DNA of 64,000 bases from Gemmatimonadaceae bacterium (GCA_045803545.1 JBJMOW010000005.1:1344001-1408000); one strand, 5' to 3'; shown: positions 22,388 to 63,720, counted from the stretch's first letter. Notes: generated by a model from the sequence alone, not told the origin. Translations and numbers: made by a program.

Positions 22388-23680
22388 ATGCCCAAATACG
22401 CTCTCGCTCTCTGCCTCGTCGCGGTAAGCTGTTCACCGCATAGTAGCACCTCCTCCCGCCTCCCCCCTTCCGCCTCCCGCACCATCGAGATTCGCAACGG
22501 CCAATGGTTCGACGGCACCAGGTTCGTCGATCGCACGATGTACAGCGTCGATGGATTCTTTGCGGAGAACAAACCGCCGCGCGTGGATACGGTGATCGAC
22601 CTGCAGCACGGCTATGTCGTTCCGCCGTTCGCTGAAGCGCACAATCACAACGTCGATGCAACGACTGCGGCTGCAGCTCGCGTCGTGGTCGACAAGTATT
22701 TCCGCGACGGCGTCTTCTACGTTCAGAATCCAGCCAACGTGCTTCGCGCGCGCTCGGGCCTCGTCGGTTTCATCAACGTTCCGACCGGCATCGACGCCAC
22801 TTTTGCCAACGCCGCTCTCACCGGTCCCGGTGGTCATCCGATGGGCTTGTTCCTTCGCAACCTCGGCCGCGGTGCGATGGTCGCGACGGACAGCAATTCG
22901 ACGAGCGGGTTTTTGTGGACGATTGCCGATCGCGGCGATCTGGATCGTAAATGGCCGCAGATCCTCGCCAGCCATCCGGACTTCATCAAGACCATGCTTC
23001 TCTACTCGGAGGAATACGAGCGGAGAAAATCTGATAGTGCATTCTTCAACTGGCGCGGGCTGAACCCGGCACTGTTACCCGAGATCGTTCGTCGCGCGCA
23101 TGCGGCCGGATTGCGAGTGATGACTCACATCGAAACTGCCGCCGATTTCCGCAATGCAGTCATCGCCGGCGTCGATCAGATCGGTCACACGCCTGGATTC
23201 AGAGGAAACGCGAAAACCCAGCTTCCTGACTTCGCTCCGTTTTTGATGACTGATGCCGACGCGGAGCTCGCCGCGAAGCGAGGCGTATTTGTCATTACCA
23301 CTCTCAGTGGGCCAGATGGTTTGCCCGATACCGGCCTCCTCGCGCGCTTCATCAAGCTCGACTCGCTCAACCTGGCGATGATGAAAAAGCATCACGTGAA
23401 GGTCATCGTCGGTAGCGATTCATATCGCACCACGTCGGTACCCGAAGCGATGTGGCTCTCGAAACTCGGCGTGCTCACCAACGCGGAGCTCCTGCGCGCG
23501 TGGACCGACGAAACCGCCCACGCAATCTTCCCGCAGCGGAAGATCGGCAAGCTTGCTCGCGGATACGAAGCGAGCCTCCTGGTGCTCGCCGGTGATCCGA
23601 TCGCCGATTTCAGCAATGTGAGGCGCATCGTGCTACGCATGAAACAGGGACAGCTGATTCAGGTCGCGGCAACGCCGTGA
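22388..23680 (+). CDS. amidohydrolase family lipoprotein
   Basis: Lipobox-like AVSC; PPFAEAHNH, THIE, IGH and GSD metal ligands; GKLARGYEASLLVL. Confidence 0.88.
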   Translation: MPKYALALCLVAVSCSPHSSTSSRLPPSASRTIEIRNGQWFDGTRFVDRTMYSVDGFFAENKPPRVDTVIDLQHGYVVPPFAEAHNHNVDATTAAAARVVVDKYFRDGVFYVQNPANVLRARSGLVGFINVPTGIDATFANAALTGPGGHPMGLFLRNLGRGAMVATDSNSTSGFLWTIADRGDLDRKWPQILASHPDFIKTMLLYSEEYERRKSDSAFFNWRGLNPALLPEIVRRAHAAGLRVMTHIETAADFRNAVIAGVDQIGHTPGFRGNAKTQLPDFAPFLMTDADAELAAKRGVFVITTLSGPDGLPDTGLLARFIKLDSLNLAMMKKHHVKVIVGSDSYRTTSVPEAMWLSKLGVLTNAELLRAWTDETAHAIFPQRKIGKLARGYEASLLVLAGDPIADFSNVRRIVLRMKQGQLIQVAATP

Positions 23681-26832: not shown

Positions 26833-27198
26833 TCAGGTGCAGGCGATCACACCGTTGATCATCGAACACGTCTTGGCGGACTGCGAGTGCGTCGCGGTCG
26901 CGCTCCATGACGGAGGCGGGCCGGCAACTGCGGTCACAACGATCGTGACGTTCGAAGAAGCGCTAAAACCCTGCAGCGGAGCCGCGGAGGTCGCGGTTCC
27001 CGAGAAGTACGCGCCCTGGTTGTCAGCGGCATACTGCTCTTCATACGTAGCAACGTTACGAAGGTCCGACTTCATCGCAGCGACGTAAGCCTTGTCCTTC
27101 GTGTTGGCGAACTTCGGAATCGCGATCGCGGCAAGAATACCGATAATCACGACTACGATCAAAAGCTCGATCAGGGTGAAGCCTTTTTTGTTTGACAC
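26833..27198 (-). CDS. type IV major pilin (PilA-like), paralog 1
   Basis: KKG|FTLIE class III signal with E5; C-terminal Cys pair; GTG start after AGGAG. Confidence 0.93.
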   Translation of the reverse strand: MSNKKGFTLIELLIVVVIIGILAAIAIPKFANTKDKAYVAAMKSDLRNVATYEEQYAADNQGAYFSGTATSAAPLQGFSASSNVTIVVTAVAGPPPSWSATATHSQSAKTCSMINGVIACT

Positions 27199-27444: not shown

Positions 27445-28632
27445 ATGGATGGCAGTAGTGTCCCAGCGAATCACGTCTCACGTGCGCTCGCGTGCGTTGT
27501 CGCACTTTCCCTCAGCGGCTGCGCAGCCGCCTCTCGATCGAGCTCCCCAACCATGAGTCAAAGCGTTGACTCGGTAGCCTTCGGCACTCTCGCGAATGGA
27601 CAAGGCGCACGGCTCTTCACGCTGCGCAATGCGCACGGCATCGAGATGCAGTTTACCAACTACGGCGGGATCATCACCTCACTCAAAACTCCCGACCGCA
27701 GCGGTCATTTCTCGGACATAGTTCTCGGCTATGACAATCTCGCCGGTTACGTTGCGAGCTCACCGTACTTCGGCGCGATCGTGGGGCGCTACGCGAATCG
27801 CATCGCCCGCGGGCACTTCACGCTCGATGGCGCGACGTACACACTCGCTGTCAACAACGGCCCCAATAGTCTGCACGGTGGACTGCGCGGCTTCGACAAG
27901 GTCGTCTGGAACGCGCGGCCGTTCCGGAATCAGGAAGGAGACGGTGTTGCGCTGGACTACACCAGCCCAAACGGCGAGGAAGGCTATCCAGGCACTCTGC
28001 GCACCACCGTGACCTATACGCTGACGCCCGACGATCGATTGATCGTTGATTACCTGGCGACGACGGACAAAGACACGCCAATCAATCTGTCACAGCATTC
28101 GTATTGGAACCTGGTCGGCAACGCATCGCGTGACATTCTCGGACACGTGCTTACGATCAATGCGGACGCGATCACGCCAGTTGATACGACGCTGATCCCG
28201 ACCGGCGAGATGATGCCCGTGCAGGGGACGCCGTTCGACTTCCGGAGCCCGCACGCCATTGGCGAGCGAGTCGATCAGCGACAGAACGCTCAGATTCGCT
28301 TTGGCAACGGCTATGATCACAACTTCGTGTTGAATCGCGGCGCTGCTGCCTCTGACGCACTCGTGTTGGCAGCGCGCGTGGTCGAGCCTACCTCTGGTCG
28401 GACGATGGACATCTCCACTACCGAACCGGGCATCCAGTTTTACTCCGGCAACTTTCTCGACGGTAGCATTACCGGCAAAGGCGGTGCTGTCTATCACTTC
28501 CGATACGGTCTGGCGCTCGAGACACAGCATTATCCGGATTCACCGAACCATCCGAACTTTCCCTCCACGATTCTGCGTCCGGGACAACAGTATCGGTCAC
28601 GCACCGTCTTCAAGTTTGGAGTGACGCAATGA
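27445..28632 (+). CDS. galM: aldose 1-epimerase (mutarotase), lipoprotein signal
   Basis: GRYANRI, SLHGG, HSYWNL, GYDHNF, ETQHYPDSPN. Confidence 0.93.
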   Translation: MDGSSVPANHVSRALACVVALSLSGCAAASRSSSPTMSQSVDSVAFGTLANGQGARLFTLRNAHGIEMQFTNYGGIITSLKTPDRSGHFSDIVLGYDNLAGYVASSPYFGAIVGRYANRIARGHFTLDGATYTLAVNNGPNSLHGGLRGFDKVVWNARPFRNQEGDGVALDYTSPNGEEGYPGTLRTTVTYTLTPDDRLIVDYLATTDKDTPINLSQHSYWNLVGNASRDILGHVLTINADAITPVDTTLIPTGEMMPVQGTPFDFRSPHAIGERVDQRQNAQIRFGNGYDHNFVLNRGAAASDALVLAARVVEPTSGRTMDISTTEPGIQFYSGNFLDGSITGKGGAVYHFRYGLALETQHYPDSPNHPNFPSTILRPGQQYRSRTVFKFGVTQ

Positions 28633-29879
28633 AAGCAATGACGCGCCAGCGCATTTCTGCACTTGTTCTTACGCTCGGACTATGCGCAGCAGGCAGCCTT
28701 CCGGCGCAGCGCCCGCAGCCGCGCCTTGGCGATGCGGGATTGCCGGGTCGACCGATGTGGACCCAGCAGCGTGCACGCGCATGGGGTCAATCGGCCGGAT
28801 GGTTGGTCGGCAGCAACTTCGCGCCGAGTACCGCCATCAATCAGCTCGAGATGTGGCAGGCCGCGACGTGGGATCCGCGCACCATCGATCGCGAGCTCGG
28901 CTGGGCCGAATCACTCGGCTTCAATACCATGCGCGTGTTCCTGCACAATCTGCTTTGGCAGCAGGACTCTGCCGGGTTCCTGAGGCGCATGGACCAGTTT
29001 CTGGCGATCGCGCAGCGTCATCACATCAAGCCGATGTTCGTTCTGTTTGATGCGGTGTGGGATCCGCTGCCGCACCTCGGCAGACAGCGCGAGCCGATCC
29101 CGCACCTGCACAACTCGGGTTGGGTGCAGAGCCCGGGCGCGGAAATTCTGTCCGATACGAGTCGCTACGAGTCGCTACGACCCTACGTCCAGGGCGTGGT
29201 TGGAAGATTTGCAAACGATCCGCGCGTAGTTGCGTGGGACATTTTCAACGAGCCCGACAACACCAATCGCCCCGCGTACATTGGCTATGAACCAGTCAAT
29301 AAGCCTGCACTGACGCTGATCCTGATGCGCAAAGCGTTCGCGTGGGCGCGCGCGATGAATCCATCGCAGCCGTTGACTGCAGCGCCCTGGCTGGGCGACT
29401 ACGCGGATCCATCGCGAATGCGGCCGGCGACGAGATTCATGCTCGAGAATTCGGACGTCATCACCTTTCACAGCTACGACGACAGCGCGACGGTCGAGAG
29501 ATTGATTACTGCATTGGAGCGCTATGGGCGACCGATCATCTGCTCCGAGTACATGGCTCGCCCCCGCGGCAGCACGTTCCAGGCGATTCTCCCGATATTC
29601 GCGCGGCGGCACGTGGGCGCCATCAACTGGGGATTCGTTTCAGGAAAGACGCAGACGATTTATCCGTGGGATTCGTGGAACAACGAATACACAGCGGAAC
29701 CGAAGGTGTGGTTCCATGACATTTTCAGGGCGAATGGACAGCCGTACGATCAAGCCGAAGTCCAGTTTATCCGCAGGGTCATTACAAACGCGCGGGGGAG
29801 ATTGAGAACCGATGGATTGCGGCCGACCGCCTTTTGGACCGAGGGCCGAGGACCAAGTGCATCGATTATCGAGGATTGA
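28629..29879 (+). CDS. glycoside hydrolase family 5 (clan GH-A), secreted
   Basis: AINQLEMWQ; WDIFNEP acid/base; FHSY; ICSEYMAR nucleophile; ATGA overlap with galM. Confidence 0.85.
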   Translation: MKAMTRQRISALVLTLGLCAAGSLPAQRPQPRLGDAGLPGRPMWTQQRARAWGQSAGWLVGSNFAPSTAINQLEMWQAATWDPRTIDRELGWAESLGFNTMRVFLHNLLWQQDSAGFLRRMDQFLAIAQRHHIKPMFVLFDAVWDPLPHLGRQREPIPHLHNSGWVQSPGAEILSDTSRYESLRPYVQGVVGRFANDPRVVAWDIFNEPDNTNRPAYIGYEPVNKPALTLILMRKAFAWARAMNPSQPLTAAPWLGDYADPSRMRPATRFMLENSDVITFHSYDDSATVERLITALERYGRPIICSEYMARPRGSTFQAILPIFARRHVGAINWGFVSGKTQTIYPWDSWNNEYTAEPKVWFHDIFRANGQPYDQAEVQFIRRVITNARGRLRTDGLRPTAFWTEGRGPSASIIED

Positions 29880-29983
29880 GTGAGGATTGAGGACAACCAA
29901 GGATTCGAGCGTCCTGCCATCGGTTGTCTTCGGTCCTCACTCAGTCCGCGGTCATCGATGCACTTGGTCCTCAGGCCTCGGTC
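29837..29983 (+). repeat. palindromic element copy A (62-nt arms, 23-nt loop)
   Basis: Arms 29837-29898 and 29922-29983 pair at 53/62 Watson-Crick positions plus 5 G-U; homologous to 38023-38152. Confidence 0.92.
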
Positions 29984-30283: not shown

Positions 30284-32056
30284 CTAGAAGAAGATGATGT
30301 TGAGCAGCAGCGCCATCGCCAGCACGAATACAGCGATCACCTTCGGACGTTCGTACCAGACGACGTTGCCTTCGGAGGGTTTTGGCGTGAGGCTGTACAC
30401 TAGCCCGCGCAATTCTTCGTCAGGGCGCGGTCGGGTAACGAGGCTGACGATGATCGTCACCACGAAACAGGTGACCCACGCCGCGATCGCGGTCCAGAAA
30501 GTCTGGCCAAGCTCGCTGCGGTAGATGATGTGTGCGCCGAAGTAGCCACCTTTGACGCCCGGCGTCGCGCCGGCCGCCAGCGACATGCCGTGATGAATCG
30601 CAGCGGCGACCGTTCCTGACAACAAACCGATGAATGCTGCATGGCCCGTCGTTCTCTTCCAGAACATTCCGAGGGCAAAGGTGGCAAACAGTGGCGCGTT
30701 GACGAACGCGAACACCAGCTGCAGAAGATCGAGAATGTTGTTGAAGGAATTCGCGACGTACGCTGCCGCAATCGACAGCACAATACCGAATACGGTCGCC
30801 ACGCGTCCCATCCACAGGTAGTGCTCGTCGCTCGCGCCCTTCTTGATGTGGCTCTGATAGATGTCGTAGGTCCAGACAGTGTTGAATGCGGTGACGTTGC
30901 CCGCCATTCCCGACATGAACGATGCGAGGAGCGCAGTGAGTCCGAGGCCGAGCATTCCCGACGGGAAGAACCGAATCAGCATCATCGGCACGGAGAGGTC
31001 ATAGTCCAGCACGACGTGTCCCGCCTGATCCAGAAGCGCGGCACCGGTTGCAGGATCGATTTTCGGCGGAATGACTCCCTGTCCGCCAGCGACCGACAGT
31101 GGTCCGCTTCCGCCGTGGGCGTGCCAGTCGACGGCCAGCGCGATCATTCCCGGCAGAATCACCAGGAACGGAAAAAAGACTTTCGGGATCGCCGCGATTA
31201 GCGGAGTGCGACGCGCCGCCGCCATGTTCTCCGACGCCATCGCTCGTTGCACGACCAGAAAGTCGGTGCACCAATAGCCGAACGAGAGCACGAAGCCGAG
31301 GCCCATCGCCAAGCCGAACCACTCCACTCCGATTGGATTCTGCGACGAGTCCGCCATGTATCGCCAGGTGTGTGTCAGGGCGCCCGCCTCGAACCCGCGT
31401 CCCACAGCGACCTCAGCCAGTTTGGCCTTGAGTCCGGTCCATCCTCCCGCCGCACGGAGCCCGAGAAATACGAGCGGCGCAAATCCGAAGACGATCAGGA
31501 AGAACTGGAGTACTTCGTTGTAGATCGCGCTGGTGAGCCCGCCAAGGAAGATGTAGGCGAGCACGATCAGCGCGGCGACGATCATGCTGAAGTGAAAGCT
31601 CCAGCCGAGCAGCAGGTTGAACAACTTTCCCATCGCGTACATCGAGATTCCCGACGACATGATCGTCATCACCGCGAATGAGATCGCGTTGAGGCTGCGG
31701 GTCTTCTCGTCGAAGCGAAGCTTGAGATACTCGGGGACGGATCGCGCGCGCGAGCCGTAGTAGAACGGCATCATGAACAGGCCTACAAAGACCATCGCCG
31801 GAATGGCGCCGATCCAGTAGAAGTGACTCGTCGCGATGCCGTACTTCGCGCCCGACGCACCCATTCCGATCACTTCCTGCGCGCCAAGATTCGCCGATAT
31901 GAAGGCGAGTCCCGCGACCCACGACGGGATGGAGCGACCCGATAGAAAGAAGTCCGTGCTCGTCTGCGTCGACCTTCGCAGCATCCAGCCGACGACGAGG
32001 ACGACCGCGAAATACACGATCATCAGGAGGTAGTCGATGCTTGTGAGATGGGTCAT
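30284..32056 (-). CDS. sodium:solute symporter family (sugar) transporter
   Basis: DFFLSGRS, ANLGAQE, SVPEYLKLRF, VQRAMA and about 14 TM helices; an in-frame ATG also exists at 32137. Confidence 0.92.
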   Translation of the reverse strand: MTHLTSIDYLLMIVYFAVVLVVGWMLRRSTQTSTDFFLSGRSIPSWVAGLAFISANLGAQEVIGMGASGAKYGIATSHFYWIGAIPAMVFVGLFMMPFYYGSRARSVPEYLKLRFDEKTRSLNAISFAVMTIMSSGISMYAMGKLFNLLLGWSFHFSMIVAALIVLAYIFLGGLTSAIYNEVLQFFLIVFGFAPLVFLGLRAAGGWTGLKAKLAEVAVGRGFEAGALTHTWRYMADSSQNPIGVEWFGLAMGLGFVLSFGYWCTDFLVVQRAMASENMAAARRTPLIAAIPKVFFPFLVILPGMIALAVDWHAHGGSGPLSVAGGQGVIPPKIDPATGAALLDQAGHVVLDYDLSVPMMLIRFFPSGMLGLGLTALLASFMSGMAGNVTAFNTVWTYDIYQSHIKKGASDEHYLWMGRVATVFGIVLSIAAAYVANSFNNILDLLQLVFAFVNAPLFATFALGMFWKRTTGHAAFIGLLSGTVAAAIHHGMSLAAGATPGVKGGYFGAHIIYRSELGQTFWTAIAAWVTCFVVTIIVSLVTRPRPDEELRGLVYSLTPKPSEGNVVWYERPKVIAVFVLAMALLLNIIFF

Positions 32057-32057
32057 T

Positions 32058-32155
32058 GCGGGATGGGGATGAGGGATGGGGGATGAGAACTGCGAAACGC
32101 GGTCAGGGCGCGCATATCTCGCCGCGCCCGCCCGCATCCCCCATCCCCATCCCAC
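32058..32155 (-). repeat. hairpin with (GGGGATG)-like arms in the symporter leader
   Basis: 25-nt arms 32058-32082 and 32131-32155 pair at 22/25 positions; two of the mismatches are G-U on the minus strand. Confidence 0.8.
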
Positions 32156-32165
32156 TTCGACCGCG

Positions 32166-32303: not shown

Positions 32304-33377
32304 ATGACGGAAAAGCGTCCCACCATCTCCGACGTCGCACGCCAGACCGGTGTCTCTAAAGCCACCGTTTCCGCAGTGCTGAACGACAGCGAAGGTGTCA
32401 ACATCGACACCCGCGATCGTGTGCTCGCCACCATCGAGTCGCTCAACTATCGGCCGACGCAGCAGTCGGGATTGAGAGCCGCGACTCGCTACCGCAGTAT
32501 CGCGCTCATCATCAAAGAGTACGACAACCCGTACTACGACGAAGTGACCTCCGGCGTGCGCGAATACGCCGAGTCTCAGGGATACATGTTGTTCGTCGTC
32601 AGCAGCGAAGGCAGCTACTCCGCGGAAAAACGCGCGGTGGAGTTACTGCGCGAGAAAGGCGTCGACGGTTTGATTGCCGCGCCGGTGATGGACGAGCACG
32701 CCGATCTCTCGCACTTCTACGAGCTCAAGCGCCGGAACTTTCCGTTCGTTTTTCTGGAGCAGGTGCGCGGCGTTCCGGCGAGTCTGGTCGATTTGGAGAA
32801 CATCAGCGCCTCGCAAAAGGCTGTCGAGTATTTGCTCTCGCTCGGCCATCGCCGCGTCGCGCACTTCGCCGGGCCGAAATACTCGTTGCACAGCGAAGAG
32901 CGCGCGAATGGCGTCCGCCGCGCTTATAGCAGCACGCACCTCGTGCTCGCGCCGGAGGACATCATCGTCGCCGGCGCGCACTTCGAGGATGGTTTCCGCT
33001 GCGGCCGCACTTTGTTCGAGTCTCGCGCGAGAGATCAATGGCCAACCGCGATCACCTGCTACAACGACCTCGTCGCGATGGGGTTGGTGAAAGCCATCAT
33101 CGATCTCGGGATGACAGTCCCGGACGATCTGTCCGTGATTGGCTTCGACGACATCAAGTTCTGCGAGACGTTCCTCGTGCCTCTCACGACGGTGCGTGTC
33201 CCCAAGTTCGACATGGGCAATCGCGCCGCCCGCATGCTTATCGATCACATCGAATCGAGAGAGGCGGTGACACCGCAGCGTCACTATCTCGATGCAACAC
33301 TGGTAATTCGCAAATCGACAGCACCGCTTTCCGTATCCCGCTTCCCGCATCCCGCGACAACCGGAGGTAACCCTTGA
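32304..33377 (+). CDS. LacI family transcriptional regulator
   Basis: PTISDVARQTGVSKATVSAVLN HTH; VPDDLSVIGFDD; PLTTV. Confidence 0.95.
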   Translation: MTEKRPTISDVARQTGVSKATVSAVLNDSEGVNIDTRDRVLATIESLNYRPTQQSGLRAATRYRSIALIIKEYDNPYYDEVTSGVREYAESQGYMLFVVSSEGSYSAEKRAVELLREKGVDGLIAAPVMDEHADLSHFYELKRRNFPFVFLEQVRGVPASLVDLENISASQKAVEYLLSLGHRRVAHFAGPKYSLHSEERANGVRRAYSSTHLVLAPEDIIVAGAHFEDGFRCGRTLFESRARDQWPTAITCYNDLVAMGLVKAIIDLGMTVPDDLSVIGFDDIKFCETFLVPLTTVRVPKFDMGNRAARMLIDHIESREAVTPQRHYLDATLVIRKSTAPLSVSRFPHPATTGGNP

Positions 33378-36300
33378 AGAACAACTCTAGCCGTGCACTA
33401 CGCAGAGTGGCCAGCTTCCTCACGCTCGTCGGCGTGATCGGAGCCGCGCTCTGTTATTTCGCTTCCTCGCTGAGTGCTCAAGGCACGGTGGGCACGATCA
33501 CCGGCGTGGTGACCGGAGAGGGCGGAGTTCCCGTCAGCGGCGTCCAGGTGACGCTGGTGAATCGCGGAATGGGCGCGACAACCGACATTAACGGCCGCTA
33601 CACCATTGGCCGAGTACCGACGGGTACTTACACGATTCGCGCCCAACGAATCGGCTTCGCGCCAGTGTCGCAACAAGTCACCGTCCTCAACGGTGAGGTC
33701 GTCACCGGGAGTTTCAGCATGACCCAGGTCGCGACGACGCTCACCACGCAGGTGGTCGTCGGCTACACGACCCAGCAACGACGCGATGTATCCGATGCCG
33801 TGGCGAGCGTGCGTGGCGACGAGCTCAGGGACCAGAAAGTCGCGACCCTCGAGGAAGCGCTGCGAGGCCGCGTGCCGGGCGTCAACGTCGTGGCATCAGG
33901 TGAGCCAGGAAGACCGGCACAGGTGATCATTCGCGGACAGAACTTCATCAGCGGCGGTGTCTCTCCGCTCTATGTAGTTGATGGGATGTACCTGTCCGAG
34001 AATCCGAATCTCAATCCCGACGATGTCGAATCGATCGAGGTGCTGAAGGACGCGTCGGCAGCCGCGCAGTATGGAGCGCAGGCGGCGAACGGAGTGATCG
34101 TCATCCGCACCAAGCACGGCGTCGCCGGCGAAACGCGGACCGAGGTGCATTCCTACTACGGCTCGCAGAGCCTGCCCAGGAAGATTCCGATGATGAACGC
34201 AGCCGAGTGGGCGGCAATTACGTCAGCGTCTTACGCGGCAGCCGGACAGACTCCACCGACGGGCGTCGTGAATCCGACGGTCAGTACCGACTGGCAGAGC
34301 GCTGTATTCCAGACGGGCAACATTCAGGATCACAACCTGTCGTTTTCCGGTGGATCACCAGCGCAGGACTACATGCTCGGCGCCGGCTATTTCGAGCAGA
34401 AAGGAACCATCGTCGAGACCGGATTCAAGCGCTTCAGCCTGCGACTGAATAGCGAGGCACGCCGGAACCGCTTCACCATCGGTGAGAACCTCGCATTGTC
34501 GCAGTCGAACAGGACGAACCTGAACGGATTTCCGCTGATCGATGCCATGCGGATGTTCCCGACGATTCCAGTGTACGATCCGAGCAACGTCGGCGGTTTC
34601 GGATACGGGACTGATGCCAATCCGAACTTTGGTACCAATCCGGTTGGCCAGCAGCTCGCGCGCAGCAACACCGACAGGTCGAACCAGGTCATCGGAACGG
34701 CATACGGCGATATCGCGTTGTTTGGCGGTCTGCATTACCGCGGCAACCTCGGCCTGAACTACGCAAATAATCTCAATCGGAACTTCAGCAGCATCGCGCA
34801 GCTCCGCTATCGCACGCCGCAGATCAACGGCGCAACGCTGAGCGAACAGACGGGCAGCATCACCTCTCTGCTGTTCGAGAACTTGTTGCTGTTCAACAAC
34901 AGCTTCCGCAATGGAGTCCACAAGCTGAATGCGGCAGCGGGGATCACATCGCAGCGTCAGGACGACAACGAGCTCTACGTCTATCGTCAGGGATTTACCG
35001 ACGAGAGTCTGACGCAGATCGACGCCGGCTCGACGTCAAACCTGAACAACCGCGGCTGGCTCATTCAGAACCGGTTGAACGCGATGCTGCTCCGCGCGAA
35101 TTACACATTGCTCGACCGCTATCTCTTCACCGGCAGCGTCCGACGTGATGGCTCGTCGCGCTTCGGACCGGGCAATCGCTACGCGAACTTCTCCGCCGGC
35201 TCCGTCGGCTGGGTGCTGAGCGACGAAGGATTCTACAAGAGCATTCCGCTTGTGAACCGCGCGGTAGACTACCTGAAGATCCGCGCCAGTACCGGCACGC
35301 TCGGTAATCAGGACATCGGCGACTACCAGTACAGCTCTCCGATCATTCAGAATCAGAATTACATGTTCGGCGGCAACGTCGTCGCCGGTTCGACGCAGCT
35401 TAGTCTCGCCAATCCCGGTATTCGGTGGCAGAGCAACAAGCAGACGAACATCGGCTTCGACTTCGGCCTGCTCGATGACGTCCTTACTCTGAGCGCCGAT
35501 CACTACACCTCGACGTCGCAGGGCTTGCTCGTTACCGCGCCAATTCCGTGGAGTCTCGGCTCGAGCGTGCAGGTTCCCGATTATCCGTTCATCGTGCCGC
35601 AAAACCCGGTGGTCAATGCCGGATCGGTACGCAATACCGGCTTCGAGTTCAACGTCGCGCACCACCTCGACAAATCAGCGTTCAAGCTGAATACGACGCT
35701 GAACTTCACCACCATTCACAACCGTGTCGTATCGCTCGGCAATGGCGGGCAGCCGATTTATGCGGGCTTCGACAACGTCGCGCGTACCGCCGTCGGTCAC
35801 CCGATTGGCGAATTCTGGGTTTATCACACGGCTGGGATTTTCCAGTCAGCCGCCGACGTCGCTGCCCATCCGGCGCAGGCAGGTGCCCAGCCTGGTGACG
35901 TGATCTTCGTCGACAGGGATGGCAACGGCGTCCTCGACGACAACGATCGCTACGCGGCGGGAAGCGGGATTCCCAAATGGACCGGCGGCCTCTTCTTCGA
36001 CGGGCATTTCAACGCGTTTGACTTCGCGTTGAACATGCACGGTACGCACGGCAACAAGATCTTCAACGTCGAGCGGTACTGGTCCGATCGCACCGACGAT
36101 CCACAGAATCATCGGTCTGACTATTCGCCGTGGACCCCGACGAACCCAAGCACCACCACGCCGCGCGCGGTGTTCGGCCCGGCTGGATTCTCGAACGACC
36201 GTCAGAACTCCGATCGCTGGATCGAAGACGGATCGTACTGGCGCATTCAGAACCTGGTGCTCGGATACACTCTTCCGACGTCGATGATGCAGCGTACACG

Positions 36301-36478
36301 CATCGGCTCGGCCCCGCGGATTTATCTCAACATTCAGAACCTGCACACGTTTACGAGTTACTCGGGTTGGGATCCGGAGATCCTCGGCCTGGCGGATCCA
36401 CTGGCAAGAGGAATCGACGATGGGCGCATCTATCCAAACGTCCGGACGTTCTCGTTCGGGCTTGATCTGAGGATGTGA
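33374..36478 (+). CDS. SusC/RagA family TonB-dependent transporter
   Basis: CarboxypepD_reg domain; PLYVVDG; IEVLKDASAAAQYGAQAANGVIVI; RRDGSSRFG; QPGDVIFVD; YPNVRTFSFG. Confidence 0.95.
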   Translation: MKNNSSRALRRVASFLTLVGVIGAALCYFASSLSAQGTVGTITGVVTGEGGVPVSGVQVTLVNRGMGATTDINGRYTIGRVPTGTYTIRAQRIGFAPVSQQVTVLNGEVVTGSFSMTQVATTLTTQVVVGYTTQQRRDVSDAVASVRGDELRDQKVATLEEALRGRVPGVNVVASGEPGRPAQVIIRGQNFISGGVSPLYVVDGMYLSENPNLNPDDVESIEVLKDASAAAQYGAQAANGVIVIRTKHGVAGETRTEVHSYYGSQSLPRKIPMMNAAEWAAITSASYAAAGQTPPTGVVNPTVSTDWQSAVFQTGNIQDHNLSFSGGSPAQDYMLGAGYFEQKGTIVETGFKRFSLRLNSEARRNRFTIGENLALSQSNRTNLNGFPLIDAMRMFPTIPVYDPSNVGGFGYGTDANPNFGTNPVGQQLARSNTDRSNQVIGTAYGDIALFGGLHYRGNLGLNYANNLNRNFSSIAQLRYRTPQINGATLSEQTGSITSLLFENLLLFNNSFRNGVHKLNAAAGITSQRQDDNELYVYRQGFTDESLTQIDAGSTSNLNNRGWLIQNRLNAMLLRANYTLLDRYLFTGSVRRDGSSRFGPGNRYANFSAGSVGWVLSDEGFYKSIPLVNRAVDYLKIRASTGTLGNQDIGDYQYSSPIIQNQNYMFGGNVVAGSTQLSLANPGIRWQSNKQTNIGFDFGLLDDVLTLSADHYTSTSQGLLVTAPIPWSLGSSVQVPDYPFIVPQNPVVNAGSVRNTGFEFNVAHHLDKSAFKLNTTLNFTTIHNRVVSLGNGGQPIYAGFDNVARTAVGHPIGEFWVYHTAGIFQSAADVAAHPAQAGAQPGDVIFVDRDGNGVLDDNDRYAAGSGIPKWTGGLFFDGHFNAFDFALNMHGTHGNKIFNVERYWSDRTDDPQNHRSDYSPWTPTNPSTTTPRAVFGPAGFSNDRQNSDRWIEDGSYWRIQNLVLGYTLPTSMMQRTRIGSAPRIYLNIQNLHTFTSYSGWDPEILGLADPLARGIDDGRIYPNVRTFSFGLDLRM

Positions 36479-36481
36479 CCA

Positions 36482-38011
36482 ATGAAATCGACTACACAGA
36501 ATCAGACGAGATCAACAATGAGAATGAAGTTTTTATGCGCGTTGGTGTGGCCGGTGGTTGTCGGTGCCGCGCTCGCTGCGTGCACCCAGGATTTGAACAT
36601 CACCAATCCGAACGCGCCCAACACCGCTGATTTCTGGCGGACCCAGGCGGACGCAATCTCGGGTATCAACGCCACCTACAGCGGACTCGAGCAGCGCGGC
36701 ACGTACCAGCGCTGGCTGGCCTTCGCATTTGACATTCGCTCGGATGAGGGTATGAGCCTCAGTCCGTGGACGGAGCTTCGCCAGTGGAACGGATTCGTTC
36801 AGGGCGACTACAATTTCGAGCCGAGCCGAGAGATCTGGTGGCACACCTACTGGACGATCTTCCGCGCCAACCAGGTCATTGCGTACGTGCCGAATATCGA
36901 CATGGATGCGACGCTGCGCTCGCGCATCGTTGGCGAGGCGAAGTTCCTGCGCGCGCTGATGTATTTCAACCTCGTAAATCTGTACGGCAACGTGCCGCTG
37001 ATTCTCGCGCCATCGGCACCGACCGATCGTCCGGCCAACGCGACGCCCGCCGAAATCTACACGCAGATCGAGACAGATCTGACCGAAGCGGCCAGCGTGC
37101 TGCCGACATCGTATTCGGCGACCGATGTCGGTCGCGCGACGAAGGGTGCGGCGCTGGCACAATTGGGTAAAGCGCAGCTGCAGGAACGGAAATGGACCGA
37201 AGCAGCGGCGACGCTGGCACAGGTGGTGGCGATGCCGCAGTACAATCTGATGCCCAACTACGCCGACAACTTCACCGACAAGTTCGAGAACAACGTCGAA
37301 TCCGTCTTCGAGGTCCAGTTCGCCGACGAAGACCAGCTGTCGCAAGGTGTGTCGGGTCTCAACATCGCGCGCATGGTCGGCGCCTGTCGAGGAAATGCCG
37401 GTGTCGATCCCAGCTACTGCGATGGATTGCCCACGCATTGGTACTTCAACCAATTCTTCGCCGACACGTTGAACCGGGCCGTGTATGATCCGCGTCTCGA
37501 CGCGACGCTGTTCTGGAACCGGCCGGGAGGGATGGACGTCTACGGAACGCCCTATACCGCGCGGTACGGCGCGACGAATGACGTGGTGTACTGGAAGAAG
37601 TGGGGAGAGTACTACCTGATCGAAGATCAGAACTGGGACAACCCGATCAACTATAGGGTGATCCGCTTCGCCGATGTTCTGCTGATGTATGCAGAAGCGC
37701 TCAACGAGAGCGGACAGACAGCGGCGGCAGTTCCGTTCATACAGCGTGTGCGTACGAGAGCGGGCGCTGGCACGGTGCCAGCAGGAATGAACCAGGCGAC
37801 GATGCGCGACTACATCCTGCACGAACGTCTGATGGAGCTGGGACTCGAGCAGTCGCGCTGGCTGGATCTGGCTCGACACGACATGCTGACGGCGGCTCTA
37901 TCGACTCATGATCCGGAGTTCACGAATTTCCCGTCATTCAAAGTGCTGTTGCCGATTCCACAGAATGAGATCGATTTGAATCCGAACATGCATCAAAATC
38001 CGGGATGGTGA
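36482..38011 (+). CDS. SusD/RagB family lipoprotein
   Basis: Lipobox LAAC; EAKFLRALMYFNLV; GRATKGAA; IRFADVLLMYAEA; ELGLEQSRWLDL; QNPGW. Confidence 0.95.
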   Translation: MKSTTQNQTRSTMRMKFLCALVWPVVVGAALAACTQDLNITNPNAPNTADFWRTQADAISGINATYSGLEQRGTYQRWLAFAFDIRSDEGMSLSPWTELRQWNGFVQGDYNFEPSREIWWHTYWTIFRANQVIAYVPNIDMDATLRSRIVGEAKFLRALMYFNLVNLYGNVPLILAPSAPTDRPANATPAEIYTQIETDLTEAASVLPTSYSATDVGRATKGAALAQLGKAQLQERKWTEAAATLAQVVAMPQYNLMPNYADNFTDKFENNVESVFEVQFADEDQLSQGVSGLNIARMVGACRGNAGVDPSYCDGLPTHWYFNQFFADTLNRAVYDPRLDATLFWNRPGGMDVYGTPYTARYGATNDVVYWKKWGEYYLIEDQNWDNPINYRVIRFADVLLMYAEALNESGQTAAAVPFIQRVRTRAGAGTVPAGMNQATMRDYILHERLMELGLEQSRWLDLARHDMLTAALSTHDPEFTNFPSFKVLLPIPQNEIDLNPNMHQNPGW

Positions 38012-39234
38012 GACTGAAGCGGGACCGAGGCCCGATGACTAAGTGCATCGATCATCGCGGACTAAGTGAGAATCTTGGACTAAAGCGCGCTTTTGTCTGC
38101 AATTCTCGATTAGTCAGCAATCATAGATGCCGTTGGTCATCGGGCCTCGGTCAAAGCTTGCAGCTCACAGCTTTTCTGCTCGTTGCCGCCGCATGCTCCA
38201 ATGCCGCGCACAATGGCACCACTGCGCCTCCGCCCGTCGGGTGCACTTTCAAGAATCCAATCGACGACGGGGCGGATCCGTGGATAGTCAAGAGCGGCAC
38301 GAACTATTACTACGTCGAGTCGAAGGACAATGGCATTTATGTCTATCGCTCGACTGCATTGACGGCGCCGAAGCAGAATCCGGTGAAGGTGTGGACTGCC
38401 CCGGCGTCGGGGTGGAACGAGACCAACATTTGGGCGCCGGAGCTACATCACATTGGCACCCACTGGTACATCTACTATGCCGGTGGCCAGCGTCATCCGA
38501 ACGGACAGGACGCGCCGTTTACGACGCAGCATGCAGGCGTGCTCGAATCAGATGTCGACGATCCGCAGGGCAACTACACGGATCGCGGAATGCTGTACAC
38601 TGGTGATGATGTTCAGGGTGGGACCAACAACGTTTGGGCGATCGATCTGACCGTTCACACAATCAATGGTCAGCAGTACGCGGTGTGGTCGGGTTGGGAT
38701 CAAAACAATCCGACGACTGACAAGATCTCGCAGAATCTTTATATCGCGCGGATGTCGAGCCCGACTACGATTTCAACGAGTCGCGTAAAGCTGGCGGCTC
38801 CCGATCAAAGCTGGGAGAGCGGCCCCGAGCTGGCGCTCGAGGAAGGACCCGAATTCCTGGAACACAACGGCAACACCTTCATCATTTACTCGACCAACGA
38901 CTCGTGGCTGCCGTCGTATCAGCTCGGTGAGCTGCGAATGACATCATCGACTGCGGATCCCTTGAGCGCGAGCAGCTATACGAAAGTAGGACCTGTCTTC
39001 TCTGGGGCCACCGACGTTTACGGTGTCGGTCACGCGAGCTTCACCGTTTCACCGGACGGCACCGAAGACTGGATCGTGTACCACTCGAAGAAAGACCCTG
39101 CGCCCGGTTGGAATCGCGCGATTCGCGCGCAAAAGTTCACCTGGGCCGCCGATGGATCACCGGCGTTTGGCACTCCGACGCCGACGGGTCAGGCCGTCGC
39201 GATGCCGGCAGGACAATGCATGGGACTCGACTAA
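38008..39234 (+). CDS. glycoside hydrolase family 43 (arabinofuranosidase-like) lipoprotein
   Basis: ADPW, IWAPELH, WAID, EGP, YGVGHASF. GTG 38008 overlaps the susD stop; alternative start TTG 38158. Confidence 0.9.
   Translation: MRLKRDRGPMTKCIDHRGLSENLGLKRAFVCNSRLVSNHRCRWSSGLGQSLQLTAFLLVAAACSNAAHNGTTAPPPVGCTFKNPIDDGADPWIVKSGTNYYYVESKDNGIYVYRSTALTAPKQNPVKVWTAPASGWNETNIWAPELHHIGTHWYIYYAGGQRHPNGQDAPFTTQHAGVLESDVDDPQGNYTDRGMLYTGDDVQGGTNNVWAIDLTVHTINGQQYAVWSGWDQNNPTTDKISQNLYIARMSSPTTISTSRVKLAAPDQSWESGPELALEEGPEFLEHNGNTFIIYSTNDSWLPSYQLGELRMTSSTADPLSASSYTKVGPVFSGATDVYGVGHASFTVSPDGTEDWIVYHSKKDPAPGWNRAIRAQKFTWAADGSPAFGTPTPTGQAVAMPAGQCMGLD
38023..38152 (+). repeat. palindromic element copy B (62-nt arms, 6-nt loop)
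   Basis: 17-bp perfect terminal IR GACCGAGGCCCGATGAC; left arm is 48/62 identical to copy A without gaps. Confidence 0.92.
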
Positions 39235-39296
39235 CGGCCGACATCCAGCTGCGTTGATCGCCGCGCGGCGCGGCAGCAATTTGTGGAGTTACTGAC

Positions 39297-39902
39297 TTAC
39301 GCCGCGCGGAATGCGTTAGCGCACCATCGACTCGTGTCGTTCTCGAGTTGAATCGTCGCTCCGGTGTTGGTTCCCAGTTGGGCAACCGTTTCGCGTACCG
39401 CGCTGGCGACACAGAGAGAGGCGTCCTCAGCCGTCAGGCCGGCGGTGCGTAACCCGGTGGCATGAGCCTCGACCATTTCGCGCATGCGAAGACGCTCGAC
39501 GCGGCAGGATTGGAGTAACCTGCTGCGCTCCACACGTTGGACAAAATTTTCCTCCAACGCGGCTTTAGCATGGGCGTGGAGCGCTTGAGCGCGGTTCATT
39601 CTGACGAGGTGGGCGAAAAGCGCGGAGCTGAGGGTGCGGCTACTGCCATTGACCTTAGCGGAGATTCTGCTGGCCCTCTCTGAAAGCGCCCACAGCTCGC
39701 GCTCATTGAGCTGGTGCCAATTCCGCGGGAAAATCCAGAGCCGCCGCACCATTTCTCGGGAGTCGAAAACCAGAGAGACAGCTCCCTGTGCCCCGGGCAC
39801 GCCGTGCCCATCAGCCTCGCGCACGATCCACGTCACGTCGTCGCGTTTGAAGCTCCGGCATGGCGAGTGAGTGACTGCAGAATCCGGCCGCCCCGCCCTC
39901 AT
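39297..39902 (-). CDS. hypothetical protein
   Basis: N-terminal W.V.E...PGA.G..LVFDS...RR.W..P.NW segment followed by a coiled-coil-like region; start uncertain. Confidence 0.6.
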   Translation of the reverse strand: MRAGRPDSAVTHSPCRSFKRDDVTWIVREADGHGVPGAQGAVSLVFDSREMVRRLWIFPRNWHQLNERELWALSERASRISAKVNGSSRTLSSALFAHLVRMNRAQALHAHAKAALEENFVQRVERSRLLQSCRVERLRMREMVEAHATGLRTAGLTAEDASLCVASAVRETVAQLGTNTGATIQLENDTSRWCANAFRAA

Positions 39903-41910: not shown

Positions 41911-41970
41911 CGAGCCCCTGAGTCCAATGCATGAACGGTGAATTCTCGCCGGGCCCAAAGGAGATACACA

Positions 41971-42336
41971 ATGAGCAACAAAAAGGGTTTTACCCTGATC
42001 GAACTTTTGATCGTCGTCGTCATCATCGGCATTCTTGCCGCGATTGCGATTCCGAAATTTGCGAATACAAAGGACAAGGCGTACGTCGCCGCGATGAAGT
42101 CTGACCTGCGCAACATGGCGACCTACGAAGAGCAGTACGCTGCCGACAACGGTGGTGCGTATTTCGGTGGCACCGCGACTTCCGCGGCTCCTCTGCAGGG
42201 CTTCACGCCTTCGCAGAACGTGACGGTCGTAGTCACGAACGTCGCTGGCCCGCCGCCTTCATGGAGCGCAACCGCCACGCACTCGCAGTCTGCGAAGGTT
42301 TGCGACATGACCAACGGTGTAATTACCTGCGTGTAA
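41971..42336 (+). CDS. type IV major pilin (PilA-like), paralog 2
   Basis: AAGGAG RBS; KKG|FTLIE; 108/121 aa identical to paralog 1. Confidence 0.95.
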   Translation: MSNKKGFTLIELLIVVVIIGILAAIAIPKFANTKDKAYVAAMKSDLRNMATYEEQYAADNGGAYFGGTATSAAPLQGFTPSQNVTVVVTNVAGPPPSWSATATHSQSAKVCDMTNGVITCV

Positions 42337-60357: not shown

Positions 60358-61164
60358 TCACATAGCGAGCCGCCGCTCCAGCTCTTCGCGCCGTGAGCGC
60401 GCGATCTTGATCTTGACGCCGTTTTTGAGCTGAACTTCGCAGTCGCCGCTCGGCGACTTGAGCAGCGCGTCAACGCGATCGAGCTGCACGATGGCCGAGC
60501 GGTGGACGCGGAAAAAGCGCGCGGGGTCGAGCTGGTTCTCCAGATTCTGCATCGCTTCGCGAATGAGGTGCTTGCGGTCGCCCACCACCAGCTCGGCGTA
60601 CGGTCCATCGGCAAGGATGTAATCGATCTCCGACACCGCGATGTAGCGAACCTTGCCACGCGACTCGACGGGAATGCGCTCGAGATAATGCGGGAGGCGG
60701 GAGGCGGGAAGCGGGAGGCGCGAACCGCCCTCGCTTGTCTCCTGCAACACCGCCAACAACATTTCACGGAGGCGATCGGCCGCCTCCAATCGCGCGATGC
60801 GCCGCGCGCGCTGAAAAGCCTCTCTGAAGCGCTCGTCGTCGAATGGCTTTACGAGATAATCGATCGCCGCCAGATCGAACGCTTCGAGCGCGTGCTTGTC
60901 ATACGCCGTCACGAACACGGTGGTCGGCATCTCGGCGGGCCCGACGGTGCGCACTACCTCGAGGCCGGTCATGCCGGGCATCTGGACGTCGAGGAAAACG
61001 AGATCGGGCGCCAGCGATAGAATTGCGTCGACGGCTGAAACGCCGTCGCCGATCATGCCGACTATCTCCACGCCAGGCTCCTTTCGCACCAGACCCGCGA
61101 CGCGCCGGCGGCCGAGCGGCTCGTCGTCGACGATCAGCACACGAAGCGGCGTGCTCTCAGGCAT
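60358..61164 (-). CDS. LytTR family response regulator
   Basis: IVDDEP, FLDVQMP, DYLVKP; LytTR FFRVHRSAIV. Confidence 0.95.
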   Translation of the reverse strand: MPESTPLRVLIVDDEPLGRRRVAGLVRKEPGVEIVGMIGDGVSAVDAILSLAPDLVFLDVQMPGMTGLEVVRTVGPAEMPTTVFVTAYDKHALEAFDLAAIDYLVKPFDDERFREAFQRARRIARLEAADRLREMLLAVLQETSEGGSRLPLPASRLPHYLERIPVESRGKVRYIAVSEIDYILADGPYAELVVGDRKHLIREAMQNLENQLDPARFFRVHRSAIVQLDRVDALLKSPSGDCEVQLKNGVKIKIARSRREELERRLAM

Positions 61165-62404
61165 TGCGTACGCTCCGGCGCTGTGACGTCGTGTGATACG
61201 GGAGACGAACCTCCACGAGGGCGCCGCCGCCTGAATCAGCAGTCAGCGCGAGTCGCTGGCGCTCGCCGTAGAGTTGCGTGAGCCGAGCACGCGTATTGGT
61301 CAGACCTACGCCCTCACGCACGGGGTTCGCCGGGCCGCGGCCGTTGTCGCGCACGCTGAGCACGAGATCGCCATCGTCGCGCACCGCGCGCACCGTCACG
61401 CGTCCGATGGTCTGCATCTGCGCGAGCCCGTGCCGAAACGCGTTCTCGACGAGCGGCTGGAGCACGAGGTTCGGGACTAGCGCGTCGTCGAGCGACGGCT
61501 CGCTCTCAATGGACACATCGAGCTTGCCCTGAAAGCGCACTTCCATGATGTCCATATAGCGTCGCAACATCTCGAGCTCGCGAGCGAGAGTGATCTCCTG
61601 CTCGTCACCTTCACCGAGAGTGTGACGCAGCAGATCGCTGAGGCGTGCGATCATGCGCCGCGCGCCGGGCGGGTCTTCATCGACGAGCGTGGAGACGGCG
61701 TTCAGCGTATTGAACAGGAAGTGCGGATTGAGCTGCGCGCGCAGCACGTTCAACCGCGCGTCCGCAACCTGCGCATGCAGCTCCGCCGATTCCGCACGAA
61801 GCTCCGTCGCCTCGGCCTCGAGCCGCCGCGTTTCTTCCAGCCGCGCCTGATAGCGCACGTAGTAGTTGCGCGCGAGTCCCGCGCCGAGCACGACCACGTA
61901 GACTATGAAGTCGTAGAGAAACGAGAAGCGGGAGAAGAGACTGCGGGGGCCGGGCTGCGGGAAGCGGGACGCGGGAAGCGAGAGGCGGGACGGGGGAAGC
62001 GGTGCGCCCGGGGCCGTGGGCGTCGCCAGCACCTGGTGGCTGATCAGTTTGAGCAGCGCGTCCACGCCGATGGCGAGCACGAGTCCAATCAGCAGAAACG
62101 CGAGGATGCGATCGAGTGTGGGCCGGTCGCCACCAAACCGCCGAGTCATCCAGAAAATCGGCAGCGTCAGCACCGCCCATAGTCCGTACTCGACCAGCGC
62201 AATTTTGTCGATGCCCGATGTGACATCAGGACGCAGCGCGGCGCGCATCGCCGCAACGGCCGCGACACGCGGGTCGATCAGGAGGCCGGCGGCTGTGAGC
62301 ACGACGAGGAACGCCCAGAACGCGAGAATCGCGAAGATCTCGCCACGCGTTAGTCGCCCGATTGAACTGCCTGTGTCCCCTGCTTCGTGCTGGTTGTCAG
62401 CCAT
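61157..62404 (-). CDS. LytS/YehU-type sensor histidine kinase
   Basis: TM helices; AQLNPHFLFNTLN; LQPLVENAFRHG; DNGRG; GVGL.N. Confidence 0.93.
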   Translation of the reverse strand: MADNQHEAGDTGSSIGRLTRGEIFAILAFWAFLVVLTAAGLLIDPRVAAVAAMRAALRPDVTSGIDKIALVEYGLWAVLTLPIFWMTRRFGGDRPTLDRILAFLLIGLVLAIGVDALLKLISHQVLATPTAPGAPLPPSRLSLPASRFPQPGPRSLFSRFSFLYDFIVYVVVLGAGLARNYYVRYQARLEETRRLEAEATELRAESAELHAQVADARLNVLRAQLNPHFLFNTLNAVSTLVDEDPPGARRMIARLSDLLRHTLGEGDEQEITLARELEMLRRYMDIMEVRFQGKLDVSIESEPSLDDALVPNLVLQPLVENAFRHGLAQMQTIGRVTVRAVRDDGDLVLSVRDNGRGPANPVREGVGLTNTRARLTQLYGERQRLALTADSGGGALVEVRLPYHTTSQRRSVRNA

Positions 62405-62453
62405 TTCGTAACACCTATCCGCCACTCGTAACACCGCGCCGAGTGCCGCTCGC
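62401..62453 (+). promoter_or_regulatory. direct repeats, probable LytTR binding site
   Basis: TCGTAACACC at 62406 and 62426 (20-bp period), plus the related CCGCTCG at 62446, in the divergent promoter. Confidence 0.6.
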
Positions 62454-62475
62454 GCTCAGTCGTAGTATCACCGTG

Positions 62476-63720
62476 ATGCCGCGAATGAAACTACCGCTTC
62501 CCGCCTCCCGCTTCCCACTTCCCGCAGCCATCGCGATCATCCTCGCCGGCAGCGGCTGGTTTTACAAACGGGCTGACAGAAGCGAACCGCCAATTTATCG
62601 CACTGCCGTGATCGAGCGCGGCAGCGTGAAGCCGACCGTCTCCTCCACCGGTACCCTCAGCGCCGTGAAGACGATCCAGGTCGGCACCCAGGTCTCCGGA
62701 CAGGTCTCGGCGATTTACGCCGACTTCAACCAGCACGTAAGAAGGGGACAACTGCTCGCCACTATAGATCCTGCGCTGCAGAACCAGGCAGTGGCGGAAG
62801 CGCAGGCGCAGGTCGAGCGCGCGCAGGCGACGATGGACCAGGCGCAGGGTGACTATGCGCGCAGCAAGCAGCTCTTCGAATGGAAGGCCATTACCGCCAG
62901 CGAGTTCAGCGCGGTGCAATCCAACTACTCGGTGCACAAGGCCGACGTCAAATCGGCGCAAGTCGCCCTCGAGCGCGCGCGACAGAATCTCGCGTACACA
63001 AAGATCTACGCGCCAATCGACGGCGTAATCGTCGAGCGCAATGTCGACGTCGGCCAGACAGTCGCCGCGAACTTCTCGACGCCGCAGCTCTTTCTCATCG
63101 CCAACGATCTCTCCGACATGCAGATCCTCGCTCTGGTTGACGAGAGCGACATCGGCGCGATCAGGAACGGTCTGCCGGTGGAGTTCACAGTGCAAGCGTA
63201 TCCCAACGAGACGTTCACTGGGATGGTACAGCAGGTGCGGCTGCAATCCAGGACTCAGGACAACGTCGTCAACTACACCGCAGTGGTCGGCGTGAAGAAC
63301 ATCACGGGCAAGCTGCTCCCCGGCATGACGGCAACGGTGCAGTTCCTCACCGGCGACGCGGAGAACGTGCTGATCGTGCCCAACTCGGCGCTACGCGTGA
63401 GACTGGGCGGGAAGCGGGAAGCGGGAAGCGGGAAGCGGGAAGCGCAGACAACTTTGGCGCAGGCGCAGGGAGCTATCGACGTCCCCGCCGACGGCAATTC
63501 GGCGATTCTCTGGACGCTCGACAAGAACGGAATGCCAAAGCCTCTGCGCGTGCACACCGGGCTGAGCGACGAAACTCACACGGAGGTCGCGGGACAAAAC
63601 CTTACCGCAGGAACGAGAATCGTGATCGGAGTGATGGACGCCGGCGCGACCTCGGGCGATGCGCCGTCGAAGAACCCGTTCCAGGAGCCGCGACCAAGCG
63701 GCGGGGACAAAGGCGGCTGA
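62476..63720 (+). CDS. efflux transporter periplasmic adaptor (MacA/HlyD-like)
   Basis: VGTQVSGQV, IYAPIDGVI, VGQTVAA, VDESDIG, LLPGMTA. Confidence 0.93.
   Translation: MPRMKLPLPASRFPLPAAIAIILAGSGWFYKRADRSEPPIYRTAVIERGSVKPTVSSTGTLSAVKTIQVGTQVSGQVSAIYADFNQHVRRGQLLATIDPALQNQAVAEAQAQVERAQATMDQAQGDYARSKQLFEWKAITASEFSAVQSNYSVHKADVKSAQVALERARQNLAYTKIYAPIDGVIVERNVDVGQTVAANFSTPQLFLIANDLSDMQILALVDESDIGAIRNGLPVEFTVQAYPNETFTGMVQQVRLQSRTQDNVVNYTAVVGVKNITGKLLPGMTATVQFLTGDAENVLIVPNSALRVRLGGKREAGSGKREAQTTLAQAQGAIDVPADGNSAILWTLDKNGMPKPLRVHTGLSDETHTEVAGQNLTAGTRIVIGVMDAGATSGDAPSKNPFQEPRPSGGDKGG
63407..63441 (+). repeat. perfect (GCGGGAA)5 tandem array inside the CDS
   Basis: Five exact units encoding GKREAGSGKREA. 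Confidence 0.95.

Follow-up and report, generated by a model that had tools for sequence, protein, structure and literature searches.

A dispersed palindromic repeat, open in frame, separates the candidate start codons from the lipoprotein export signal of a Gemmatimonadaceae GH43 gene

The hairpin at the susD-GH43 junction

A long hairpin follows a susD gene in a soil bacterium, placed among Gemmatimonadaceae by its named orthologs, and precedes the export signal of the next gene, a GH43 lipoprotein gene. It raises the question of whether ribosomes read the hairpin as part of the GH43 signal, start beyond it, or meet an RNA from which it is skipped or removed. The junction belongs to a sugar-use operon which, by ORF calls and a domain search of the 64-kb stretch of DNA analyzed (the window), contains a lacI-type regulator, susC, susD, and the GH43 gene (Table 1). 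The mature GH43 enzyme is similar to alpha-L-arabinofuranosidase II (PDB 3akf) and is under purifying selection, with a dN/dS of 0.05 to 0.07 against six orthologs. Scans of 37600-39500 for sigma-70 promoters and intrinsic terminators found none.

Table 1 Features of the susD-GH43 junction and of a second repeat copy in the window
Feature	Position	Strand	Basis and remarks
Copy A, same repeat family	29837..29983		Overlaps the final codons and stop of a GH5-like gene (28629-29879)
susC-like TonB-dependent transporter, upstream gene of the operon	33374..36478	+	ORF; Plug and CarboxypepD_reg domains
susD-like lipoprotein gene	36482..38011	+	ORF; PF07980 1.9e-36; TGA is 38009-38011, overlapping the GH43 start
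Two in-frame candidate starts, ATG 38005 and GTG 38008	38005..38010	+	Both overlap the susD end; GTG 38008 gives a 4-nt overlap with the susD stop
130-nt imperfect palindrome	38023..38152		One of 37 genome loci; open in the GH43 frame
CGA codon in the 5' arm	38026..38028	+	TGA in most arms; CGA in 13/47 arms
Out-of-frame ATG in the 3' arm	38127..38129	+	Counterpart in frame in L001, L003, and L082; the contig of a relative shows no indel across 38119-38285
TGG codon in the 3' arm	38134..38136	+	TAG in most arms; variant in 15/47 arms
TTG 38158, rival start	38158..38160	+	Start in the public gene call (358 aa); Cys follows after 12 codons; no basic residue
Hydrophobic core and lipobox	38161..38196	+	Hydropathy; predicted lipid-modified Cys is 38194-38196
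Mature GH43 glycoside hydrolase, arabinofuranosidase-like	38194..39234	+	PF04616 1e-46; PDB 3akf 1.5e-45

As a first-pass annotation of this DNA had proposed, the hairpin is in frame, with the candidate starts before it and the lipoprotein export signal after it. Conceptual translation showed the GH43 frame to be free of stops from ATG 38005 or GTG 38008 to the stop at 39234, region 37990-38200 folds at -99.1 kcal/mol (z of -7.1, equaled by 0 of 200 shuffles), and 5 of 162 frames in the repeat family are open. The 44 stop-free codons reported at 38023-38154 were also found on translation; they cover the 130-nt core of the element plus 2 nt. The arms, about 60 nt long and 78% complementary, are terminal inverted repeats. 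The stem extends beyond them, with 38008-38020 pairing with 38156-38168, so that the candidate starts GTG 38008 and TTG 38158 are both paired.

The first-pass annotation had placed the start at GTG 38008. The overlap with the susD stop is real, but ATG 38005 and the in-frame ATG 38035 had been overlooked; the latter, within the 5' arm, is the next in-frame start downstream and is followed by TTG 38158. A spacing of -4 is the most frequent in the genome (326 gene pairs), and it is likely from this arrangement that ATG 38005 or GTG 38008 is translationally coupled to susD. It counts against the coupled start that the fold also pairs GTG 38008.

The signal read from these starts has, by hydropathy, a basic n-region and one hydrophobic peak immediately before the Cys; its repeat-coded insert is hydrophilic, with 11 K/R compared to 3 D/E. 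By the lipobox pattern it reads as a predicted Sec and signal peptidase II lipoprotein signal. The signal core and the Cys are retained across GH43 orthologs, and in a related strain three nonsynonymous-site changes in the core (F to V, A to L) leave its hydrophobicity intact. No second such case was found among the 225 predicted lipoproteins of the genome. Twenty-six of the 225 have no ATG or GTG 14 to 34 codons before the Cys, and among those 26 the GH43 gene of the window folds most strongly.

The repeat family and its surroundings

BLAST and a profile search detected 37 family loci in the genome, of which 27 could be trimmed to full copies, with cores of 117 to 196 nt; 8 are short and 2 were unparsed. 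The family occurs in 27 of 109 genus genomes (G070 included; 26 of 108 without it). It is stop-rich: the 5 open frames out of 162 were counted across the 27 full copies, the window's included, and in the phase used by GH43 the count is 2 of 54. One of the 27 full copies lies wholly in frame within a gene. For the window copy to be open, the CGA variant, the TGG variant, and the correct length are all required, and both variants are common in the family. A single open-frame coincidence per genome is not overwhelming; it is the orthologs that decide.

The copies gather at gene ends. Judged by de novo gene calls (3176 genes), 32 of the 37 loci have one or more gene 3' ends pointing toward them, and 36 of the 41 facing ends lie within -46 to +26 nt of a copy. 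Fifteen of the 41 overlap a copy, which often provides the stop codon. For instance, copy A supplies the last ~14 codons and the stop of the GH5-like gene. At three further loci (G000 C4:228285, C4:247915, and C5:36737), the 3'-arm ATG of a copy is in frame with the next gene, where it can mislead gene callers or give short N-terminal additions.

Searches for hallmarks of known mobile repeats were negative. First, no target-site duplication was found, as 3 of 27 copies had one of 2 nt compared to 2.4 in shuffles. Second, there was no GTAG/CGTC end tag; such tetramers occurred in 7 of 27 flanks at no fixed position. Third, a search for a RAYT/Y1 transposase (PF01797, Y1_Tnp) gave 0 matches in the 93% complete genome, compared to 6 of 14 in the control. 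Finally, Rfam returned no true family, the best match being a sub-threshold plant miRNA hairpin (39.9 bits versus 168).

Other repeats of the genome touch on this family. Four loci (G000 C4:92633, C6:201289, C2:296540, and C2:328242) contain a diverged sub-family whose inner arms differ from those of the element, and related arms bracket a four-helix-bundle gene at C2:990951. Long inverted repeats, which mostly come from different families, flank all eight four-helix-bundle (PF05635) loci of G000 (C4:457251, C5:27136, C4:382346, C4:1518086, C6:61416, C4:1539421, C2:990951, and C5:154518), with scores of at least 21.5; 2 of 893 control genes reached 20. The gene at C4:1539334-1539774 is flanked by arms of the GH43-hairpin family, and the match at C6:61416-61731 falls into two overlapping pieces, which suggests a frameshift. 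The GH43-type hairpin may be, from the layout at C4:1539334-1539774, a gene-less form of a hairpin-bracketed four-helix-bundle cassette.

The window also contains heptamer repeat arrays, some of them inverted, at 22448-22486, 32051-32162, 33323-33355, and 60677-63445. One array overlaps the start region of a sodium:solute transporter-like ORF and another the end of the lacI-type gene; repeats of the same kind fill the GH43 signal in orthologs L092, L095, and L100. Two 354-nt stretches in opposite orientation, at 26839-27192 and 41977-42330, are 79% alike; a pilin-like ORF (41938-42336) contains the latter, and they are probably paralogous pilin genes.

Orthologous junctions and competing starts

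Orthologs were drawn from 80 genome loci, 80 metagenome loci, genus matches (11/109), and family matches (28/401). Keeping those with an upstream susD end (and, in one comparison, at least 55% identity) left 57 distinct junctions. The window falls in a 13-row clade with support of 100/100, on a short terminal branch (0.0034), and the content of the junction turns over fast in this clade. The short signal that the first-pass annotation expected in orthologs without the insert exists: L099 is an empty site, where the signal has 17 residues and its ATG overlaps the stop of susD. L093 and L094 (94 to 95% identical) carry a 12-bp mini-hairpin that shares its outer ends and its phase with the element of the window but is 99 nt shorter. 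The sister of the window, L092 (97% identity), has instead an unrelated heptamer hairpin, again in frame, and its nearest start is 35 codons before the Cys. Unrelated heptamer hairpins are also open in frame in L100 and in L095, whose 5' end is missing and where the 34 codons closest to the Cys offer no start. In L003 and L082 a longer relative of the window element stands between residues that match the empty site, and in L001 the junction is open from a GTG 4 nt past the stop. An exception is L097, which is in a different phase, contains a stop, and has its nearest GTG 74 codons upstream. A distant clade shows the same contrast, with empty coupled sites in L011, L012, and L125 to L127 and 39-nt repeat units in frame in L114, L115, and L123. 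In a separate observation, the GH43 match of L086 (G079 C93:1515-2576) contains one TAG, apparently near the C-terminal end.

The openness of the frame does not look like chance, because few family frames are open and the orthologs keep several unrelated repeats readable at the same site. The translated, RPE-like insert that the first-pass annotation had offered as one option is thus well supported by the orthologs. That annotation would have given way to a start at 38158 together with non-coding spacers in orthologs lacking the hairpin. Such spacers, with their own ATG, do exist in many more-distant orthologs, and L085, L096, and L098 carry the same element as the window in non-coding form behind a new ATG, but the closest relatives have no such start. 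Because these relatives lack an ATG of their own, the non-coding spacers do not refute the case of the window.

Among junctions of at least 80 nt, 7 of the 8 without their own start were in the coupled phase and open; the same was true of 8 of 30 that have an ATG of their own and of 5 of 8 that have a GTG. The Fisher p of 0.003 for the first two classes overstates the difference, since the 8 fall in two clades and kin are not independent, and the rule for an own start left out TTG and GTG codons fewer than 14 codons from the Cys, which affects the window and L093. Where a junction has its own ATG, the coupled phase is found in half of the cases (15 of 30) regardless, and 9 of 11 short junctions are coupled. 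A stem-loop with a z of -2 or lower was present in 18 of 40 junctions, short ones included, and most long junctions have one after susD, coding or not.

From these comparisons we consider it probable that ribosomes restart at the susD stop and translate the hairpin, and that the repeat-coded part is discarded with the signal. The best-placed alternative, though an unlikely one, is that translation begins at TTG 38158, the hairpin being an ordinary non-coding 3' repeat of susD that is open by chance. This TTG is the start in the public gene call, but it is a weak codon, it is paired in the fold, and no basic residue follows it. Twelve codons before the Cys, the window and L093 both have a codon capable of starting translation (TTG and GTG, respectively), and a 12-residue signal is predicted for one other gene of the genome; L092 and L095, however, have no start at that position and are still in frame. 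Likewise, most family copies are non-coding and hug stop codons, and the element is non-coding in L085, L096, and L098, but the non-coding junctions all have a true ATG with a basic n-region, and the chance of an open phase is 2 in 54. The first-pass annotation had discounted TTG 38158 for lack of a basic n-region and of a free RBS. Its first reason stands, and the Shine-Dalgarno (SD) match is 3 bases long. The RBS argument is weak because an SD match is likewise lacking at the coupled starts and SD matches are uncommon genome-wide (one of 4 or more in just 608 of 2461 ATG genes).

It is improbable that the hairpin almost silences GH43 or spoils its export, so that the gene is beginning to decay in this lineage. 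The low dN/dS, the maintenance of the frame through repeated repeat turnover, and the hydrophobic core kept in the related strain all speak against decay, even though a very stable stem lies over both starts and the end branch of the window is too short to reveal a very recent relaxation.

A third possibility is that the true start is the in-arm ATG 38127, joined to GH43 by an assembly indel or a ribosomal frameshift. Its appeal is that the counterpart of this ATG is in frame in L001, L003, L082, and P0010, where it gives a signal of normal length. In the window it is buried in the stem, and a related-strain contig across 38119-38285 has 5 substitutions and no gap, on which the assembly-error form of this explanation was rejected. 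Independent contigs are gap-free over 37700-38066 and 38119-38285, and none spans 38067-38118 at the GH43 locus. L093 is, moreover, in the same phase past the arm. In P0003 and P0011 (among 13 of 90 cluster members examined) Ile replaces the in-arm Met, so that this ATG is dispensable there and an upstream start must serve. Altogether, a start at ATG 38127 is very improbable.

The arms themselves bear on translation. They were compared in G078, G079, and G030 (among the matches listed, 56 of 133). A fixed site in the phase used by GH43 holds TGA, TAA, or TAG in 61 of 62 other arms among these listed matches. The GH43-site arms of L001, L003, and L082 (3 of 3) have TCA there, unpaired in the stem, whereas the partner arms of these loci keep TGA in both cases parsed (2/2). 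The element is used in two different phases, that of the window and that of these three loci. Open frames are commoner in the same three genomes (18 of 144 among the matches listed), in other phases, and the three TCA loci may represent one inherited event. The replacement of the stop in precisely those arms that must be read would be a footprint of selection for translation.

Finally, we give almost no credence to a removal or skipping of the hairpin at the RNA level, whether RNase III cuts it, it is excised and the ends ligated, or ribosomes hop over it, to leave a short signal. RNase III does cut Correia elements in Neisseria (PMC10969869), and removal of the element would leave a normal-looking signal resembling that of L099, but skipping leaves the loss of a stop codon inside the arm unexplained. 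RNase III cleavage is also unsupported because the enzyme was not found in this genome or in the genus (0 of 61 genomes, G070 included). Nor was it found in 105 genomes of eight Gemmatimonadota families, the host's among them, compared to 15 of 16 genomes of four other families that have it; its loss is probably clade-wide in these families and would bear on rRNA maturation. Bypass or excision is unnecessary since the frame is open, and no excision joint was seen at the GH43 locus in the contigs of 8 runs, which is a weak test. One joint in run X4 that skips 36 nt inside a hairpin was rejected as probably belonging to a different repeat copy. RNA contigs from four studies (X6, X9, X10, and X12) include none that spans the junction; they contain more pieces on susD than on GH43, although the runs were chosen with this stretch and so cannot rank the genes. 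The first-pass interpretation is therefore partly supported: its translated-insert alternative fares well and its RNA-level one does not.

A possible mechanism and comparison with known systems

In the coupled reading that we favor, ribosomes ending susD would re-initiate at the overlapping starts 38005/38008 and read through the hairpin, which would give a hydrophilic, net-positive signal peptide of 62 to 63 residues. An elongating ribosome unwinds stems. Re-initiation would bring such a ribosome onto the hairpin, while fresh initiation at 38127 or 38158 would first have to open the stem. Signal peptidase II would then cut at the lipobox Cys, so that the repeat-coded part is lost and the mature enzyme is unchanged. 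The n-region presumably tolerates nearly any hydrophilic, net-positive sequence, and selection would therefore keep the frame rather than the peptide.

The junction appears to have gained a strong stem-loop directly 3' of susD repeatedly. Its presence behind susD in most long junctions suggests that it may protect or favor the susC/susD message, as for the stem-loops of PMC4423207. The chances are about even that it serves as a 3' barrier or partial brake favoring that message over GH43, and the attenuation of GH43 relative to SusC/D that the first-pass annotation had raised is plausible. Lineages would then have two solutions, a non-coding spacer with a new ATG or, as in the window, a coding hairpin behind a coupled start. 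A wider proposal is more speculative, and we hold it tentatively: the junction could be a dual-code slot in which selection places an mRNA stem-loop behind susD, recruits a spreading palindrome for it, and edits out stops despite the lost pairing, with loss of RNase III letting long duplexes persist and the repeats being gene-less four-helix-bundle cassettes. Coupled translation of the hairpin would imply that Sec and signal peptidase II accept signals of 50 to 76 residues whose sequence is nearly random and that such lipoproteins are cut short by automated gene calling (to 358 aa here), and it would offer a route to tune the transporter:enzyme ratio in sugar-use operons. A signal peptide of 68 residues, that of a Tat substrate, is on record in the portion of PMC3223724 that deals with it.

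The closest parallel is with RPEs, which the relevant parts of PMC10969869 and PMC2229807 describe as dispersed palindromes of 105 to 150 nt that form long stem-loops and occur between genes as well as in frame inside protein genes; one Rickettsia protein containing an RPE is translated and active (PMC2229807). Like an RPE, the GH43 hairpin is a dispersed palindrome of 100 to 150 nt (37 loci) with a stable stem-loop (z of -7.1), and it is inserted in frame into a conserved protein gene, being missing in ortholog L099 and present as a mini form in L093. Unlike RPEs as described there, it resides in an unrelated host, its family is stop-rich with no conserved peptide and a single intragenic in-frame copy out of 27, and the insert belongs to a portion predicted to be cut off. 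Judged by these features, the GH43 hairpin works like an RPE but is not a member, as it has no conserved open frame.

A second parallel is the Yersinia YPAL/RU-2 fusion YPO1552, whose signal peptide is partly formed by a MITE (as outlined in PMC2229807); in both cases repeat DNA is read as part of a predicted export signal. The repeat there, in the same outline, gives hydrophobic residues to a proposed new protein, whereas the GH43 repeat does no more than extend the n-region of a lipoprotein that is old and conserved, and several repeat families have reused this site. The element has the terminal inverted repeats of a classical MITE and no target-site duplication, and arms of its family bracket a four-helix-bundle gene. 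It also resembles REPs and REP dimers, the GTAG- and CGTC-tagged repeats of PMC3733652, which in the account available from that paper adjoin gene 3' ends, often supply the stop, and are sometimes intragenic. Unlike those REPs, the GH43 family has no conserved GTAG/CGTC tag, its stems are much longer, and no Y1 transposase was found in the genome. On target-site duplication, end tags, and Y1 transposase, the GH43 hairpin is neither a classical MITE nor a tagged REP, and it differs from a Correia-type element processed by RNase III in that this enzyme was not found in the host.

As described in PMC4423207, the polysaccharide-use cip-cel operon of Clostridium cellulolyticum likewise has upstream genes whose 3' ends bear a stem-loop, which could set transcript ratios. 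The stem-loops for the selective processing and stabilization of RNA there are intergenic and experimentally shown, whereas the GH43 stem-loop is coding and its role is inferred.

In open-licence PubMed Central and bioRxiv, no account was found of this repeat family, nor any that treats repeats in lipoprotein n-regions as a class. It is well known that palindromes can be coding, and the present case, probably translated within a signal, is a variant of these. It provides a sequence-level test of a dispute, namely whether N-terminal palindromic repeats are translated or are annotation errors. In the section of PMC3733652 that bears on it, most N-terminal REPs are argued to be misannotations; against that view, the GH43 locus argues for translation in one case.
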